Source: a virus (lineage: Duplodnaviria > Heunggongvirae > Uroviricota > Caudoviricetes). Taken from it: a stretch of 9,254 nucleotides of DNA. Below the pieces are notes generated by a model. That model had not been told where the DNA came from and ran no database searches. It saw nothing but the letters and a program-made list of their open reading frames with translations. Below are positions 1 to 9,254 of this stretch, piece by piece (the first letter of the stretch is position 1; each line of letters begins with the position of its first letter). The DNA lies in the IMG/VR virus record IMGVR_UViG_2585427737_000005. One strand, 5' to 3'. A program made the position numbers and the translations under genes.

Positions 1-1360
1 CCCGTAAGGCGTTCTCTGCGATGTTGTTGTCGATTTCCACCCAGCCATTACTGCAGTACACGTTCAGTGCATCCCACTGTTTCAGCAGGTATGCGAACGC
101 TTTTGCCGTATCTGAGTGACGCGACAGTGTTTTCATCTGTTGCTGTATCCAGTCATACAGTGACTGCATCAGTGGCGCGGCTCTGGCTTTTCTTGCCGCC
201 AGACGCTGTTCTGCTGAACAGCCCCGGACCTCTGCCTCGATGGCATACAGTTCACCGATACGCTGCAGGGCTTCCGTGGTGATGTAGGTGGGCGCTCTTG
301 CATGCACATCGTGGATTTTTCTCCGGGCATGAGCCATACACGCGGCTTCCGTTATTCTGCCGGATTCGTATAACGCCCGGTAACCACCGTAAGCATCGGC
401 CTGAAGCACACCGCTGTAACCGGCCAGGTGATTTTGTGGATGGATACCTTTCCGGTCCGGACTGTACGCGAACCAGACCGCCGGGGGCATCTGTGAACCG
501 GCGTTACGGTCATCACGGACGTAGACCCACAGCCGGGCTGTCCGGGTTTTACCGCTGCCCGGCTCCTGGACCGGGACGGGGATATCATCAGCATGGACTT
601 TACCGGGCATCAGCACATACTGGCGCAGGACGTCATACAGCGGCTCCAGCAGTTCAGCAACAGCACCTGTCCAGCGCCCCAGTGTGGCACGGCTCAGCTC
701 CACTCCCTGACGACGGTATATTTCTGACTGGCGGTATAACGGCAGATGGTCTGCATATTTCCCGGTGACAACATGGGCCAGAAGCCCCGCTCCGGCATAA
801 CTGCGTGCAATGGGTTTTGAAGGTACTGGTGCCTGCACGATATGGTCGCACCGGCAACAGGCCTGTTTCGGACGTTGTGTTTCGATAACCTTAAAGGCGC
901 TGCTGATAAGCTCCAGTTGCTCTGACACATCACATCCCAGAGAACTGAGTTCACCACCACAGGCAGGACAGCATTCCTCTTCCGGCCGGATAACCCGGGT
1001 TTCACGGGGAAGTGAGGCCGGTAACGGTTTACGGGCTGAAGACTGGCGCAGGGCGGATGGCAGTACCGGGTCATATTGCTCACCCAGCGTTTCCGCCATT
1101 TCTTCCTGAAGTGCGCTGATTCGCTCCTGTGCTTCCTGTATCTGCCGTTCGGTTTTTGCACGAAGTTTTTCTGAGCTTTTACCGAACTGCATACGTTGCA
1201 GTTTCGCAACCAGCGCCTTCAGCCGGTTGATTTCGGAAGCATAAGCCGCCACCCGCTGTGAGAGCAGGCGGTTGTATTCAGCCATCTGGCGGATGGTGTC
1301 CTGTTGCGTCTGCAACAGTGCCCGCAGGCGGGCGTTCTCATGAGCAAGTGAGGTGTCCAT
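1..1360 (-). CDS. tnpC: IS66-family transposase TnpC (orf3), C-terminus truncated by window edge
   Basis: Manual translation of the minus strand from ATG at 1360..1358 gives an uninterrupted 453-codon frame to position 1 ([33 protein letters not shown] ... [14 protein letters not shown]). It contains the CxxC pairs and DDE-region motifs typical of IS66 TnpC as I recall them. GAGG Shine-Dalgarno sits 7 nt upstream. The ORF track misses it because no stop codon falls inside the window; the listed 694..1209(-) ORF is a different frame. Confidence 0.9.
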
Positions 1361-1379
1361 ATCCTCACTTTACAACGGG

Positions 1380-1727
1380 TTATATGCGGATTCCAGCGCG
1401 TTCCGTTCGTTTCGGGTGCTTCCAGTTGATACCTTCAAGAAGCATGGATAACTGAGCCGGAGTAAGGTGCACCTTGCCGTCACGGGTGACTGGCCAGACG
1501 AAGCGGCCCCGCTCCAGGCGTTTGGTGAAGAGGCACAGTCCGTCACTGTCAGCCCACAACACTTTTATCTGGTCACCCCGGCGTCCGCGGAAGATGAACA
1601 GGTGTCCGGAGAACGGGTCATCCTTCAGGACGTTCTGAACTTTTGATGCCAGGCCGTTAAAGCCATTTCGCATATCGGTGATACCTGCAACCAGCCAGAT
1701 ACGCGAACCTGCAGGGAGAGATATCAT
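1380..1727 (-). CDS. tnpB: IS66-family accessory protein TnpB (orf2)
   Basis: 115-aa ORF (MISLPAGSRIWLVAGITDMRNGFNGLASKVQ...) matching the conserved IS66 Orf2 family by recalled similarity. Its ATG overlaps the tnpA stop in an ATGA arrangement. Confidence 0.9.
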   Translation of the reverse strand: MISLPAGSRIWLVAGITDMRNGFNGLASKVQNVLKDDPFSGHLFIFRGRRGDQIKVLWADSDGLCLFTKRLERGRFVWPVTRDGKVHLTPAQLSMLLEGINWKHPKRTERAGIRI

Positions 1728-2374
1728 CAGTGGCTGCTCCCTTTTATTTCGCGGATAAGTGTCTGTAATAACGCCGGCGTCAGTTTACCTTTAAGCCTGA
1801 GAGTTCCGGCCGGCAGAACCAGCTCACAACACAGACTGTCGGGCGGTGTATTTATCTGCTCTGGTTCCTGTGCGGGGGCCGGGATTTTATTATCCGGCTC
1901 CGGCGTTAACGTCACGGGAAGCAGTGCCGGCATATTTTTTCCGGAAGGCAGCAGGCCACCTTTCCGGTATTGATGGCGCCAGTTGAAGAGCAGGTTATCG
2001 TTGATTCCGTTTTCCCGGGCGATCTGCGCCACACAGGCTCCGGGCTGCAGTGACTGCTCCACTAAGGCGATTTTAAACTCATAAGGGAAGTTGGGCCGCC
2101 GGGGACGTTTTTTTACCACGGGGGCTTCGGATATAACGGTGCTTTCAGGACGTACGACTGGTACCGTGGAAAATTGTCCGTAAAGGCAGGCATCAAGTTC
2201 CTGCTCCGACATGCCTGCGGGCAAAGGCCACGAAAGGCCAGCTCTCCGAAAGCGCACGAACATACTACAAACAGTTGATTTTGGTACACCCAGGCGACGC
2301 CCGGCCACAACCCGGGGTAAATGTTCTTCAAAGTGAAGACGTAAAGCTTCAGTGATCCAGGTCCGGTGTTTCAT
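1727..2374 (-). CDS. tnpA: IS66-family accessory protein TnpA (orf1)
   Basis: ORF immediately upstream of and overlapping tnpB. Start taken as ATG 2374 (MKHRTWITEALRLHFEEHL...); an alternative in-frame ATG exists at 2404. Neither has a strong Shine-Dalgarno, so the start is uncertain. Confidence 0.75.
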   Translation of the reverse strand: MKHRTWITEALRLHFEEHLPRVVAGRRLGVPKSTVCSMFVRFRRAGLSWPLPAGMSEQELDACLYGQFSTVPVVRPESTVISEAPVVKKRPRRPNFPYEFKIALVEQSLQPGACVAQIARENGINDNLLFNWRHQYRKGGLLPSGKNMPALLPVTLTPEPDNKIPAPAQEPEQINTPPDSLCCELVLPAGTLRLKGKLTPALLQTLIREIKGSSH

Positions 2375-2440
2375 ACGATAGTGTCCATTAAAAATGATGG
2401 ACATTATTTTTGTAGAGCCGGAGGAAACAGACCAGACGGT

Positions 2441-2959
2441 TTAAATGAGCCGGTTACGTGTCACCTGCAAGATGTATTCATGCTCGACAGCCAGGACACG
2501 CTTCTCTTTCTTCCGTTCGTTCATTAACCGACTGCCGATCGTACCTTTCAGCTTTGAGCGTGTTTCTTTGATGGCGTAGCGGTGCTGCATTTCTTCGCCA
2601 ATTGCCATGCGGCGGCTCAGTTGTTCTGCCATCCAGTTGAATGCTGCGATATAGCTCTCCTTGATTGCCGCAGCAGCTTTCCCGGTGAACCCCATCACAA
2701 CCATGATCCAGCCATCTTTCGTCAGGCTGTACATCGGGCGAACCTTGCCCTGCTCATCGATATAATCAGCCGACGCAAAATTGCGTTGGCTAAACTCACG
2801 CGAGCAATCAGCCTTAACCTGCTCGATTTTCCTGAGAACATCACCGTGTCGCTTGCCGAAGTACTTGGCAATTTTTCTGGATGTGGTAACGACCTCTCCG
2901 TTTTTGGCTTGCACCATTTCTCGGAAGTCGAAGGCTGGAATAACTGAATGATTATTCAT
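2441..2959 (-). CDS. Rha-family phage regulatory protein (antirepressor-like), probably C-terminally truncated by the IS66 insertion
   Basis: N-terminal region (VVTTSRKIAKYFGKRHGDVLRKIEQ ... RPMYSLTKDGWIMVVMGFTGKAAAAIKESYIAAFNWM) matches the Phage_pRha domain pattern as I recall it. ATG at 2959 is preceded by AAAGGTAAAGA. The last 5 codons and the stop (2441-2457) fall inside the proposed IS terminus. Confidence 0.7.
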   Translation of the reverse strand: MNNHSVIPAFDFREMVQAKNGEVVTTSRKIAKYFGKRHGDVLRKIEQVKADCSREFSQRNFASADYIDEQGKVRPMYSLTKDGWIMVVMGFTGKAAAAIKESYIAAFNWMAEQLSRRMAIGEEMQHRYAIKETRSKLKGTIGSRLMNERKKEKRVLAVEHEYILQVTRNRLI

Positions 2960-3100
2960 AGCGTCTTTACCTTTTAGAAAGTGAGCCTGTCTCACAGAAA
3001 AGCCGCCCGAGAGAGGTCGCCACCTATAACGGCATTTCTCAGGCTCGCTTACTGAAAGGCTCTCGTTAATATGCGCGTGAGATGCGCTGTGAAATTCAGA

Positions 3101-3127
3101 TATAAAAAGCCCCGCGAATGCGAGGCT
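3101..3127 (-). terminator. Rho-independent terminator candidate downstream of the lysis cassette (minus strand)
   Basis: Minus-strand RNA reads 5'-AGCCUCGC-AUUC-GCGGGGCU followed by UUUUAUA: an 8-bp stem with one G-U pair, 4-nt loop and U tract, about 175 nt after the Rz stop. Confidence 0.55.
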
Positions 3128-3301
3128 AAATCCTGGTATTTGTAATGAACTGGCTCTTATCTCAACGCAGCCCCTTACTGCGCGCCAGATGCTCAATATC
3201 AAGCATCAGCAATGAGATGTTTAATCTGGATTTACTCCAGAAGTGATCACCACCCTGTCTACAGAGCCAGATGTGAAGGATGATGAGTAAAATTATCGCT
3301 A

Positions 3302-3769
3302 TCATCGAAGGCATTGCGTCCTAATGTATTCCTGAAGCGTTCTCAGTGCTGTTTGGTCGCGGATAATTCCGTCCCGGATATCGAGAACGTTTCGTCCAGC
3401 AACTGGAGAGAGTTCGACGGTGGCATCATTGCCCATGCCGGAGGCGCTGGAGGTTTCGGCAGAGGATGGCACAGGGCATTTTCCTTTGACGAGCACCCTG
3501 CCACCATTATCAAGCTTCCGCAGAAGAGCATCATTTTCAGCTTTCGCATCAGCTAACTCCTTCGTGTATTTTGCATCGAGCGCAGCAACATCACGCTGAC
3601 GCATCTGCATGTCAGTAATTGCCGCGTTCGCCAGCTTCAGTTCTCTGACATTTTTGTCGCGCTGGGCTTTGTAGGTAATGGCGTTATCACGGTAATGATT
3701 AACAGCCCATGACAGGCAGACGATGATGCAGATAACCAGAGCGGAGATAATCGCGGTTACTCTGTTCAT
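3302..3769 (-). CDS. rzpD: Rz-type i-spanin (lysis protein, inner-membrane spanin subunit)
   Basis: ATG at 3769 overlaps the endolysin stop (ATGA). N-terminal TM segment ([23 protein letters not shown]) followed by a charged coiled-coil-like region, as in lambda/21 Rz. The track ORF begins at an upstream GTG (3781) that lacks a Shine-Dalgarno. Confidence 0.85.
3343..3549 (-). CDS. rzoD: Rz1-type o-spanin lipoprotein, embedded in the +1 frame of Rz
   Basis: 68-aa ORF lying wholly inside Rz. Lipobox IMVAGC places the lipidated Cys at residue 19, followed by a proline-rich stretch ([11 protein letters not shown]). Strong Shine-Dalgarno (AAGGAG) 9-14 nt upstream of ATG 3549. Confidence 0.8.
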
Positions 3770-4263
3770 TGCTGACCCCACAAACAGATTTCACGCTCAA
3801 TCTCACGACGAGTCATGAGACCTTTCCATTGCTTACCGCCAGCATATGTCCAGCGACGTAGCTGATCACATGCGCCTTTGATATCGCCCTGGTTTATTTT
3901 GCGAAGAAGCGTCGATGTTCTGAAATTGCCAGCACCCACGTTGTAAACGAATGAGTAAAGAGCGCCGCGCATTGTTTCCGGTATATCGACTTTGATGTAC
4001 GGGTTAATTTGTCTGGCGACCGTGGCAAGGTCTTTATTCAGGAGGGCTTTGCATTCTGCTTTGGTATACGTTTTACCGAGCATGATGTCTTTTCCTGTAT
4101 GCCCGTGACATACAGTCCATACACCAACAATATCTTTGTATGGTATGTAGCTGACACCTTCCAGACCATCGTTACCACTTGGGCCAGTAATTAACACTGA
4201 TGCTATAGCAATTGCTCCGCCACCAATAGCAGCAGCAACGGCTTTTCGTAATGATGGAGGCAT
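3766..4263 (-). CDS. rrrD: SAR endolysin (phage-21 R-type lysozyme, T4-lysozyme fold)
   Basis: 165-aa ORF with an N-terminal Gly/Ala-rich signal-anchor-release segment ([20 protein letters not shown]) and the lysozyme core ([12 protein letters not shown]...). Start overlaps the holin stop (TAATG); stop overlaps the Rz start. Confidence 0.9.
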
Positions 4264-4478
4264 TATTCACCTCTCGCAGCCTTGCGCTTATCTTCTTTAA
4301 TCTTGAAATAAAGGTTTGTCAGGTACGTCAGCAGGCCAAATACCAGGCTACCCAGCACACCTATTGCTGCCCACTGTGAGGGCGTGACTTTATCGAGCAG
4401 CTGTAAAAACCAGTAACCGGCACTACCTGCTGAGGTGCCATAGGCGACACCCGTTGTTAACTTATCCATGGATTTCAT
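4263..4478 (-). CDS. essD: Pinholin (phage-21 S-type class II holin) with dual start motif
   Basis: 71-aa [29 protein letters not shown]... with two TM segments. Met1 (4478) and Met4 (4469) give the antiholin/holin dual start. GAGGTG Shine-Dalgarno upstream. The track ORF is extended from an upstream alternative start. Confidence 0.9.
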
Positions 4479-4604
4479 AACCCCACCTCGCAGACAAAGC
4501 GGGTGTAAATTGAGGGAATACAACGTATCGCAAAAAAGCAGAAACGTAACAGACTCGGAGTCAGTGAATAACTCAGGTATTGGGTTATCAGCTAATATCG
4601 AGAC

Positions 4605-4639
4605 TCAAAAAATGGAAAAACCCGCTCGACGGCGGGTTT
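4605..4639 (-). terminator. Rho-independent terminator candidate about 130 nt upstream of the holin (minus strand); weaker on plus strand
   Basis: Stem AAACCCGC / GCGGGTTT (4618-4625 and 4632-4639) with 6-nt loop. On the minus strand it is followed by UUUUUCCAUUUUUU. Confidence 0.55.
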
Positions 4640-5065
4640 AAGCTGTGTGACGAAGTAACCACTCTTAACAGCATAACCAATTTTTTACGTACGTAAACCA
4701 CTAAATGATATTTGCGAGAATGCTACCGAGTATTGAAAACACCACTACAAATACATAAGCAAATCTCAACAAATAACCAACAAATAATTTCCAGCGTTAT
4801 TTTTAGCTGGTTTAAATTGAATCTTCAAATTATAGAGCACTTATAAATAACAGCCATTAATATAAATTGGCTAATAGATTTATTTTTATTCAGCCAAGAG
4901 CCATGAATAGGATTCGATAGAAAAAGTTCAGATAAAAATAGAGATCTACTTCACAAATCAAATGAGAAACCAAAACTTACATCTTGAAATAATCACATTG
5001 ATTAGATGAATATTTATCGCGCAGTGACATCATTTTTTAATAATAGTTCAAAAAAAGGGCTCACG

Positions 5066-6148
5066 ATGAAAAAATTAACAGTGGCAATTTCTGCTGTAGC
5101 TGCATCAGTACTGATGGCGATGTCTGCTCAGGCAGCTGAAATTTATAATAAAGACAGTAACAAGCTGGATCTGTACGGGAAAGTTAATGCTAAGCACTAC
5201 TTCTCCTCTAATGATGCAGATGATGGTGATACTACTTATGCCCGTCTTGGCTTCAAAGGTGAAACCCAAATCAACGATCAACTGACTGGTTTCGGTCAGT
5301 GGGAATATGAATTCAAAGGCAACCGCGCTGAATCTCAAGGTTCCTCCAAAGATAAAACCCGTCTTGCCTTCGCTGGCCTGAAATTCGGTGACTACGGCTC
5401 CATCGATTATGGCCGTAACTACGGTGTAGCATACGATATTGGTGCATGGACCGACGTTCTGCCAGAATTCGGTGGCGATACCTGGACCCAAACAGATGTA
5501 TTCATGACTGGTCGCACCACAGGTGTTGCAACTTATCGTAACAATGACTTCTTTGGTCTGGTTGATGGTCTGAACTTTGCTGCTCAGTATCAGGGTAAAA
5601 ATGACCGCACTGACGTAACTGAAGCTAATGGTGATGGTTTCGGTTTCTCCACTACTTATGAGTATGAAGGATTCGGTGTAGGTGCAACCTATGCTAAATC
5701 TGACCGCACTAATAATCAGGTTATCTACGGTAACAACAGCCTGAATGCATCTGGTCAAAATGCTGAAGTATGGGCAGCTGGTCTGAAATATGATGCGAAC
5801 AACATCTATCTGGCTACCACCTATTCTGAAACCCAGAACATGACTGTTTTTGGTAATAACCATATTGCCAACAAAGCACAAAACTTCGAAGCTGTTGCAC
5901 AATATCAGTTCGACTTCGGCCTGCGTCCATCCGTTGCTTACCTGCATTCTAAAGGAAAAGACTTGGGTGTTTGGGGTGATCAGGACCTGGTTGAATATGT
6001 TGATGTAGGTGCAACCTATTACTTCAACAAAAATATGTCCACTTTTGTTGACTACAAAATCAACCTGATTGATAAGAGCGATTTCACGAAAGCATCTGGC
6101 GTTGCTACCGATGATATCGTTGCTGTAGGTATGGTTTACCAGTTCTAA
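5066..6148 (+). CDS. nmpC: Outer membrane porin NmpC/Lc (OmpC/OmpF/PhoE family), apparently intact
   Basis: 360-aa ORF from ATG 5066 ([23 protein letters not shown], signal peptide, then [17 protein letters not shown]...) ending in the porin C-terminal motif VYQF. AAAGGG Shine-Dalgarno 7 nt upstream. The track ORF (from 5006) includes a 20-codon upstream extension that is unlikely to be translated. Confidence 0.95.
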
Positions 6149-6310
6149 TTTGATTACTAAAAGATATGTTGTGGGAGGCTTTGCCTCCCCAACATATAAG
6201 TGGCTCCCTCAAGCCACTTCCTTTAGAAGCACAACCTTGCTTCTAACTATACAAACCTTCTGTTATATATTACCCTTTATTTTTGGGGGCGTTTCAACGC
6301 CCCATTTTTA
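6149..6310 (+). ncRNA. ipeX: Structured nmpC 3' UTR, IpeX-like regulatory RNA region
   Basis: Four stem-loops within about 160 nt after the nmpC stop (6164-6197, 6198-6219, 6222-6247, 6285-6303), the last followed by a T tract. IpeX was described as arising from the untranslated region between the nmpC stop and its terminator in DLP12 and PA-2. Identity rests on position and structure, not on sequence comparison. Confidence 0.4.
6285..6310 (+). terminator. Rho-independent terminator candidate for nmpC / 3' UTR transcript
   Basis: GGGGGCG-TTTCAA-CGCCCC stem-loop followed by ATTTTTA on the plus strand, lying between the convergent nmpC and quuD genes. Confidence 0.6.
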
Positions 6311-6336
6311 ATAACTTTTAGTAAATAATTGGCGTA

Positions 6337-6720
6337 TTAATTAGAGTTATTAACAACGATATCCATCTCTAACCGGATATCTAATGCCATTAACATCCCT
6401 TCAATTATGCCCTCAGCCTTCTGTAACCTTTTCCCGATATAACCATCAGAGCAGCAATGCTTACCTGCCAGTGACATGAATGTCATACCGACTACATAAT
6501 AATCTACTAATAAATCGTGCAAATCGCTGTTGTTCTTTTTCAGACGGGCCATGCACCCGCAAATGATCATCGCGTCATCGTCACAACATTGCGGGCGAGA
6601 TTTTACTTTTGAAGTAATTAATCCCTTAAAACCGGCGGCAATGGACGACCAGGTCACATCTTCATGATTATTAGCCGCCCACGCTCCCCAACGCTCAAGA
6701 ACCATCTGAATATCACGCAT
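6337..6720 (-). CDS. quuD: Late-gene antiterminator Q (QuuD-type, small Cys-rich Q)
   Basis: 127-aa ORF from ATG 6720 ([22 protein letters not shown]...) with GGAG Shine-Dalgarno 8 nt upstream. Cys clusters ([20 protein letters not shown]) suggest Zn binding. Product and position after rusA/ylcG match the DLP12 gene order from memory. Confidence 0.8.
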
Positions 6721-6805
6721 CAACTTACTCCACAAAAATCAGACCAGAACGCCAATTACAAGCAAAAATCAACAAAACAGTATTAGTTGATTGTTATCTC
6801 TGACT

Positions 6806-8392: not shown

Positions 8393-8473
8393 AGGTTTTA
8401 ATTGTGCTTTATTCTTTCAAGCGTTTCCTTCATACCAAAGCCTATAAAGTTTTTCTTCTTCGTTTGGGTTAAT

Positions 8474-9254
8474 GTAAGCGTCAACGGAGCACCGTATTGA
8501 CGCTTATTTATTGGTGAGTACTACGTTCCATGGCAGGAGTTCGTCAACACGGTTGGAGGGCCATTCCGGCAGTACGCTCAGAATATGGCGCAGATACGCT
8601 TCCGGATCGATACCGTTCAGTCGGCAGGTGCCGATCAGCCCGTACAGCAGTGCTCCACGCTCGCCGCCGTGATCGCTACCGAAGAACACGTAATTTTTCT
8701 TTCCGAGACAGACTGCACGAAGCGCTCTTTCCGCTGTGTTATTGTCCACCTCCGCCAGACCGTCATCACTGTAATAACAGAGGGCGTCCCACTGATTCAG
8801 TACATAGCTGAACGCTTCGCCCAGTCTGGATTTTTTCGACAGCGTGCCATTCTTCCCACCATCCATTCATGCAGCGACGTCAGTAACGCTTTGCTTCGCT
8901 GCTGCCTGGCTGCAAGACGCTCTGACTCTGGTAATCCCCGTATTTCATTCTCGATGGCGTACAGTTCACTGATTCGCTTCAGGGCTTCTTCTGCCGTCGC
9001 ACTTTTGCTGCTGATGTATACATCGTGGATTTTTCTCCGGGCATGAGCCCAGCACGCAACTTCTGTCAGCGCACTACCTTCACGTTCTGCACTGAACAGC
9101 CTGTCATAACCTGTGAACGCATCCGCCTGCAGGATACCCCGGAAGGGGCGGAGGTGTTGCTCCGGGTGTTTCCCCTGCCGGTTCGATGAGTACGCGAACC
9201 AGACCGCCGGAGGAGATGACGAACCCGCATTGCGATCATCCCGGACATACGTCC
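8474..9254 (-). mobile_element. Second IS66-family insertion sequence, partial; tnpC-side terminus in window, remainder beyond window end
   Basis: Plus strand at 8474 reads GTAAGCGTCAACGG... (5'-GTAA terminus) immediately followed by the tnpC 3' end. Its protein is related to but clearly different from element 1 TnpC, so this is a distinct family member. Confidence 0.8.
8504..9254 (-). pseudogene. tnpC: IS66-family transposase tnpC, frameshifted (apparent 1-nt deletion near 8860/8861); N-terminal part beyond window
   Basis: The frame entering from the window end ([34 protein letters not shown] ... LTSLHEWM) stops shortly after 8861. The C-terminal 120 aa (DGGKNGTLSKKSRLGEAFSYVLNQWDAL ... LPWNVVLTNK) continue in the -1 frame from 8866. 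Aligned to element 1 TnpC ([20 protein letters not shown] versus EW-I/M-GGKNGTLSKKSRLGEAF), one nucleotide is missing in TGGAT-GGTGGG. Confidence 0.75.

Follow-up and report, generated by a model that had tools for sequence, protein, structure and literature searches.

The window, i.e., the whole analysed stretch of 9,254 nucleotides from the Caudoviricetes record IMGVR_UViG_2585427737_000005, contained an intact nmpC/lc-type porin gene at 5066–6148 on the plus strand, assigned from the list of open reading frames, a Porin_1 match and identity to the Lc porin of phage PA-2. The reading frame spans 5006–6148 (+), and its internal ATG at 5066 opens a protein of 360 amino acids. The surrounding phage genes lay on the minus strand. 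On one side was quuD, encoding a 127-aa antiterminator Q (PF06530, E = 4e-53), with an ORF at 6337–6735 and its ATG form at 6337–6720. On the other side were essD, encoding a phage-21-type holin (4263–4478; PF04971, E = 3.5e-35), the endolysin (lysozyme) gene rrrD (3766–4263; PF00959, E = 1.3e-45) and the spanin gene Rz (3302–3781) with Rz1 embedded at 3343–3549 (PF03245 and PF06085). Farther along, rusA, ybcO, ninE and ybcN had the same orientation as Q and the lysis genes. QuuD was 78% identical to the Q of VT1-Sakai and distantly related to the solved Q21 structure. Between the stop codon of Q and the start codon of the holin gene lay 1858 bp, in agreement with the sequence-only reading, in which the porin was described as opposite to quuD and to the holin–endolysin–spanin genes and as separating them by about 1.8 kb. 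The holin begins with MKSMDK (4469–4478, minus strand), which is the dual-start (antiholin/holin) motif known from S genes of the phage-21 type; in phage 434B, the annotation names the corresponding starts S71 and S68.

The prophage itself was interrupted by insertion sequences. An ISCro1-like element of the IS66 family occupied about 1–2440, downstream of rha in the late operon (tnpA, 1727–2404; tnpB, 1380–1727; tnpC running off the left end of the window), and E. coli APEC17 has the same insertion. Another transposase fragment of the IS66 family was found in the ORF at 8504–8866, which covered profile positions 296–385 of 387 and had an in-frame stop upstream. Homology to related prophages ended at about 8393–8471, and the early region may have been displaced or lost. 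In none of the complete genomes of the collection did a single place match over 80% of the window. Because IS66-family elements flank it on both sides, the prophage is probably defective; Q may seldom be made, and induction experiments may be uninformative.

The deduced protein had the sequence features of the general bacterial porins, a class marked by a cleavable signal peptide, a PEFGGD motif in loop L3 and a C-terminal aromatic residue. It covered the full length of the Porin_1 profile (PF00267, E = 1e-152, profile positions 1–337 of 337), and the solved chains of OmpK37, OmpC and PhoE aligned to residues 24–360 (E of about 1e-134 to 1e-136). Residues 1–23 (5066–5134, plus strand) were the same as the annotated 23-aa signal peptide of PA-2, the PEFGGD region of the constriction loop L3 was located at residues 131–140, and the protein ended in VYQF with the terminal Phe present. 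Homology to solved trimeric porins suggests that it forms a trimeric, 16-strand beta-barrel diffusion pore. Compared with PA-2 Lc, the protein was 92% identical, showed neither a stop nor a frameshift and agreed without a mismatch over residues 1–98; identity was 82% to Salmonella OmpD, against 64% to K-12 OmpC and 62% to K-12 OmpF. Given these higher values for Lc and OmpD, the porin is of the NmpC/Lc/OmpD type and not OmpC, despite the name under which the same CDS appears in RefSeq (WP_000737273.1, ‘porin OmpC’, without a pseudogene flag). ETEC genomes bearing WP_000737273.1 were 100% identical to the window over 4524–6336. An identity above that to the chromosomal porins, an antisense position between Q and the lysis genes and conserved flanks together mark an NmpC/Lc prophage porin. 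A 280-aa ORF runs antisense to the porin gene (5105–5947, minus strand) and is most likely a chance ORF; ‘ORF1’ of PA-2 is a similar case.

The NmpC/Lc identity and intactness proposed for the gene, for which a protein comparison had been asked, were thus borne out, as was the statement that nmpC of K-12 is disrupted by IS5: in MG1655 it is annotated as a two-piece pseudogene, with IS5B sitting 58 bp before the 3′ end of the gene. Intact copies are nevertheless common, because 2465 of 5426 complete E. coli genomes had the 1813-bp Q-to-holin interval unbroken (coverage of at least 80% at a single place), with up to six such places per genome. The interval was also whole in 36 of the 43 matching phage records, PA-2 included; the protein cluster at 90% identity that contains the window allele held 2741 member sequences, and the annotation of thousands of genomes includes intact nmpC/lc genes. 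An uninterrupted frame is the usual state, and K-12 is the exception. Among 41 alleles (out of the 52 best database hits, restricted to 340–380 aa), variable positions fell into seven patches, at 49–52, 87–95, 181–187, 216–227, 263–267, 294–306 and 335–347, while the L3 motif region was invariant. According to known porin topology, these patches would correspond to the surface loops L1, L2 and L4–L8.

The AT-rich porin regulatory region (4699–5065, plus strand) was delimited by GC content and by identity to PA-2 and K-12. The GC content was 0.29–0.30 over 4651–5100, against about 0.45–0.55 in the flanks, and the 5′ spacer was about 95%–97% identical to the PA-2 and K-12 spacers. A sigma-70 consensus scan found no site within 4700–5065 or elsewhere in either spacer, and the promoter positions given here come from homology and published work instead. 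In K-12, the nmpC promoter is active and drives the IS5 transposase, and deletion of −199 to −1 before the nmpC ATG removes promoter function (PMC11677980); this 199-bp PnmpC segment corresponds to 4867–5065 of the window. The counterpart of the promoter-proximal CRP site of PA-2 (misc_binding 1363–1383 in J02580), a predicted site mapped by alignment, is located at 4938–4958.

The upstream region had been described as AT-rich in the manner of horizontally acquired, H-NS-silenced DNA. Its base composition agreed with this description, and the nmpC/essD spacer of K-12 was scored as H-NS-bound in all ChIP-chip data sets and is one of 78 ‘promoter islands’, classed as poorly transcribed (PMC3661553). 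Silencing of nmpC by H-NS is not absolute, however, because the gene is expressed at 37°C both in K-12, where a 16.5-fold induction at this temperature was found (PMC8544407), and in CFT073, whose nmpC genes, which are intact alleles, show preferential expression at 37°C at the RNA and protein levels (PMC12890032). By analogy with the CFT073 alleles and the active K-12 promoter, the host could express the porin of the window, as had been suggested, although this refers to a potential only.

An alternative with a rather low probability is that the porin gene is intact but quiescent, being silenced by H-NS or part of a decaying element, so that it would contribute nothing to the envelope and would be turning into a pseudogene. 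The H-NS-bound, poorly transcribed promoter island of K-12 and a prophage riddled with IS66-family elements are in keeping with quiescence, and nmpC of E. coli B was reportedly described as quiescent by Prilipov et al. in 1998. Against quiescence stand an ORF, signal peptide, L3 motif and C-terminal Phe that are all intact, an allele cluster of 2741 sequences, the 37°C expression of relatives and a K-12 promoter that drives the IS5 transposase.

Between the porin gene and the holin gene, a late promoter pR′ is predicted at 4670–4697 (−) from homology to VT1-Sakai, H-19B and Sp5. Its −35 box is TTTACG (4697–4692), followed by a 16-nt spacer and the −10 box TATGCT (4675–4670). After the −10 box, the alignment runs through the conserved block TAAGAGTGGTTAC, a hairpin at 4639–4618 and a T-run. 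The hairpin and T-run in the pR′ leader (4604–4639, minus strand; terminator scan and fold) constitute a candidate tR′, the stem of which was conserved in six phages. Overall, 4698–4616 (−) was 78% identical to the Stx-phage late segment over 83 nt (E = 4e-14), and identity reached 89% with Stx2a_1447. The boxes TATGCT and TTTACG are weak and were not flagged by the consensus scan, and one Stx record, AP005154, is annotated with different putative −35 and −10 boxes. The AP000400 record gives the segment the labels ‘putative late promoter’, ‘putative Q-utilization’ and ‘terminator for pR′ transcript’.

The transcription start of this segment has been mapped in Stx phages. In both Sakai Stx phages, dRNA-seq placed the pR′ start 258 nt upstream of the tR′ 3′ end determined by Term-seq (Sy et al.; PMC7547250). 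In AP000400, a step of 258 nt upstream from the T-run, a placement based on this distance and not on the published NC_002695.1 coordinates, leads to an A seven nt after the −10 box, in the same alignment column as A4663 of the window. The predicted pR′ start is accordingly A4663, seven nt after the −10 box; the holin gene begins about 185 nt farther downstream, and Q is about 1.65 kb away. The segment was found in 363 phage records and a QuuD-like Q in 401, and the counts of the two were equal among Stx2a (123), Stx1a (47), Enterobacteria (23), Stx2 (19), Shigella (12), Stx (6) and Stx1 (4) phages. Within the window, 4698–4616 (−) was the only homologue of a late promoter with a mapped start for a QuuD-type Q. 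Because this homologue is located between the porin and the holin gene, late transcripts need not cross the porin gene; most likely, judging from these alignments, the late promoter lies beyond it. The earlier proposal of a Q-dependent late transcript that begins beside Q and runs antisense through the porin gene therefore finds no support here.

The counterpart of the distal ‘CRP site’ of PA-2 (misc_binding 1067–1087 in J02580) is a predicted site at 4644–4664, mapped through the shared motif TAAGAGTGGTTAC. It coincides with +1 to +20 of the predicted pR′ transcript, in the block conserved in Stx phages, and possibly has no part in regulating the porin. This site is about 400 bp from the porin ATG and has a weak right half-site (AACCA vs. 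TCACA). A further feature of the late leader is a 16-bp stretch at 4524–4539, GTATCGCAAAAAAGCA on the plus strand, which was present in the window and PA-2 and absent from DLP12 of K-12.

Of VT1-Sakai, only positions 1501–1582 aligned to the window and nothing from 1585–1800 did, and the window had no homologue of the 74-nt StxS of Stx phages. The mapped 3′ end in these phages belongs to a second terminator, 258 nt downstream. Since that terminator is absent from the window, the single hairpin at 4639–4618 may be leaky, which would fit the low-level roles reported for the DLP12 lysis cassette in K-12 (PMC7918800). The same study describes a ‘fragment −121 to +650’; together with the primer sites, this seemed to put a lysis-cassette start on the strand opposite to the porin gene, some 49 nt ahead of its ATG. 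This start was dropped because the 771-bp amplicon can just as well be read as ‘−650 to +121’ counted from the essD start codon and so says nothing about where transcription begins.

A more far-reaching interpretation, which we regard as improbable, is that a constitutive pR′ and the porin promoter share one AT-rich island, H-NS-bound in K-12, with a leader RNA of about 55 nt or leakage past the hairpin as a regulated output. If this were true, thousands of E. coli genomes would give rise to this leader, which shares homology with the first part of the pR′ transcript of Stx phages, and the arrangement might couple the control of the porin by temperature, CRP and H-NS to low-level expression of the lysis cassette. 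Low-level expression of the K-12 lysis cassette is tied to vesicle and biofilm phenotypes.

On the other side of the porin gene, the 3′ untranslated region (6149–6313, plus strand) is the equivalent of the ipeX region, as indicated by about 95% identity to the K-12 and PA-2 spacers, which extended over the whole 3′ spacer (6149–6336). Three stacked hairpins (6164–6197, 6198–6219 and 6223–6246, plus strand; folding z = −7.15) were followed by a terminator-like GC hairpin and T-run at 6286–6303 (+; terminator scan). A scan of the whole window against Rfam at E ≤ 1 gave no match, with neither ipeX nor the pR′ leader recognised. Matches to the 3′ spacer were confined to 36 phage records, and each of these matched the porin interval as well. 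Since it was found only in porin-bearing phages, the Q-proximal spacer is, by this distribution, part of the porin cassette and does not belong to Q. In a comparison with the regions downstream of Q in Stx2 II and Lambda_ev245, only a terminator-like GC hairpin was alike. For PA-2 and DLP12, expression in lysogens and a lowered OmpC level are known from the literature, reportedly also from Castillo-Keller et al. in 2006.

These properties of the Q-proximal spacer bear on the position of the late promoter. If it adjoined Q as in lambda, about 1.8 kb of antisense transcription would pass through the porin gene and conflict with its expression. Such an arrangement has precedents, as pR′ abuts Q in lambda and the Stx phages, and the viable hybrid phage 434B, which has Q, nmpC::IS5 and S, must have its lysis genes transcribed across or beyond about 3 kb; −10-like strings also occur in 6149–6336. 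This stretch is, however, the porin-linked ipeX terminator stack, without similarity to any pR′ region and without a promoter-like site in the scan, and the pR′ homologue is found at 4698–4616 instead. We give a Q-adjacent late promoter little credence. The 434B record (OL657227) contains the K-12 DLP12 segment including nmpC::IS5 at 1177–4768 and marks, besides a crossover point for 434B in ylcG, roughly where homology to 434 is lacking; because it carries nmpC::IS5, 434B copes with about 3 kb between Q and the holin gene. That the gene is the host's chromosomal ompC and not phage cargo is scarcely credible, since the OmpC subfamily of NCBIfam as best hit above its cut-off (515 bits vs. 484) and the RefSeq name ompC are outweighed by the identities to K-12 OmpC (64%) and PA-2 Lc (92%), the position embedded between Q and the lysis genes and the presence of the gene in sequenced phage genomes.

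Several lines of evidence point to the porin gene as a moron-like insert, and the features of the locus are not a chance pattern. In H-19B, VT1-Sakai and Sp5, the segment homologous to 4698–4616 overlaps or adjoins the Q stop codon, whereas Q and this segment are 1.65 kb apart in the window. The intervening DNA has its own hairpin stack and terminator and a GC content of 0.29–0.46, against about 0.5 in the flanks. As to a promoter of its own, the scan was blank over 4700–5065, and the near-identical K-12 region is active within −199 to −1. Two other phages with a Q of the same family, Stx2a_1447 (AP012536, 2271–3834), the Q of which is 46% identical to QuuD, and SfII (829–2443), each carry two unrelated antisense ORFs between Q and the same pR′ segment, which follows the cargo. 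These ORFs were tested as porins and are not porins. Because unrelated antisense genes occupy the same slot in Stx2a_1447 and SfII, the Q/pR′ junction is a recurrent insertion point for antisense cargo, of which the porin is one. Lambda_ev245 has an antisense lipocalin gene, blc, directly after Q (4050–4574).

Comparison with known systems placed the window closest to PA-2 and DLP12. The Lc gene of PA-2 (J02580) is alike in its position between Q and phage-21-type lysis genes, its antisense strand, signal peptide and CRP annotations, with about 97% identity to the window in the 5′ region and about 95% in the 3′ spacer. In contrast to Lc, the porin of the window has two short deletions and substitutions, which are confined to loop-like patches (181–187, 216–227, 263–267 and 335–347). 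DLP12 of K-12 has the order ybcN, ninE, ybcO, rusA, ylcG, quuD, porin, essD, rrrD and rzpD in common with the window and near-identical spacers, but its nmpC is split by IS5B, whereas the copy in the window is uninterrupted. OmpD, OmpC and OmpF have the same Porin_1 architecture, PEFGGD motif and C-terminal Phe but are chromosomal and stand in another regulatory context. The Stx phages (H-19B, 933W/Sp5 and VT1-Sakai, from which StxS is known) have the 83-nt pR′–tR′ segment and a Q of the same family in common with the window; their module abuts Q and is followed by the second terminator and stx, whereas that of the window leads directly to the holin gene.

Taken together, the locus is very probably the complete NmpC/Lc cassette of a DLP12/PA-2-like lambdoid prophage, inserted antisense between Q and the late promoter of Q. 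The cassette would be a self-contained unit made up of the AT-rich promoter region, the gene for the 360-aa porin and the ipeX 3′ region ending in a terminator. In the lysogen, host polymerase would transcribe the porin gene and ipeX rightward from the AT-rich island, and this transcription may be modulated by H-NS, temperature and CRP by analogy with relatives, which are induced at 37°C and catabolite-sensitive. If expressed in this strain, the porin would add a further pore of the OmpC/OmpF kind whose surface loops vary, and ipeX RNA, by analogy with PA-2 and DLP12, might lower OmpC and OmpF. At the other edge of the island, pR′, the activity of which we infer from the Stx phages, would fire leftward, away from the adjoining porin promoter region. 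In the absence of Q, the pR′ transcript would end at the hairpin and T-run at 4639–4604; with QuuD, polymerase would read through into the holin, endolysin and spanin genes. As the porin promoter and pR′ would diverge, Q-dependent late transcription would not pass across the porin gene. The only converging transcription would be early transcription through Q, which would meet the ipeX hairpin stack; early transcripts extending past Q, if antiterminated, could cross the porin gene antisense during lytic growth.

An uninterrupted NmpC/Lc porin cassette is already known, and nothing at the locus departs from described biology; since the 1980s, NmpC/Lc has counted as a textbook case of a porin of lysogenic conversion. 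The one useful correction concerns the position of pR′ relative to the porin gene. In models of how the late genes of DLP12/PA-2-type prophages are transcribed, pR′ belongs immediately before the holin gene and not beside Q, and this position removes the supposed antisense conflict. In addition, the RefSeq label ‘porin OmpC’ hides prophage cargo that is only 64% identical to OmpC. Such a label matters for predictions of permeability, antibiotic uptake and phage receptors. The surface-loop patches differ between alleles.
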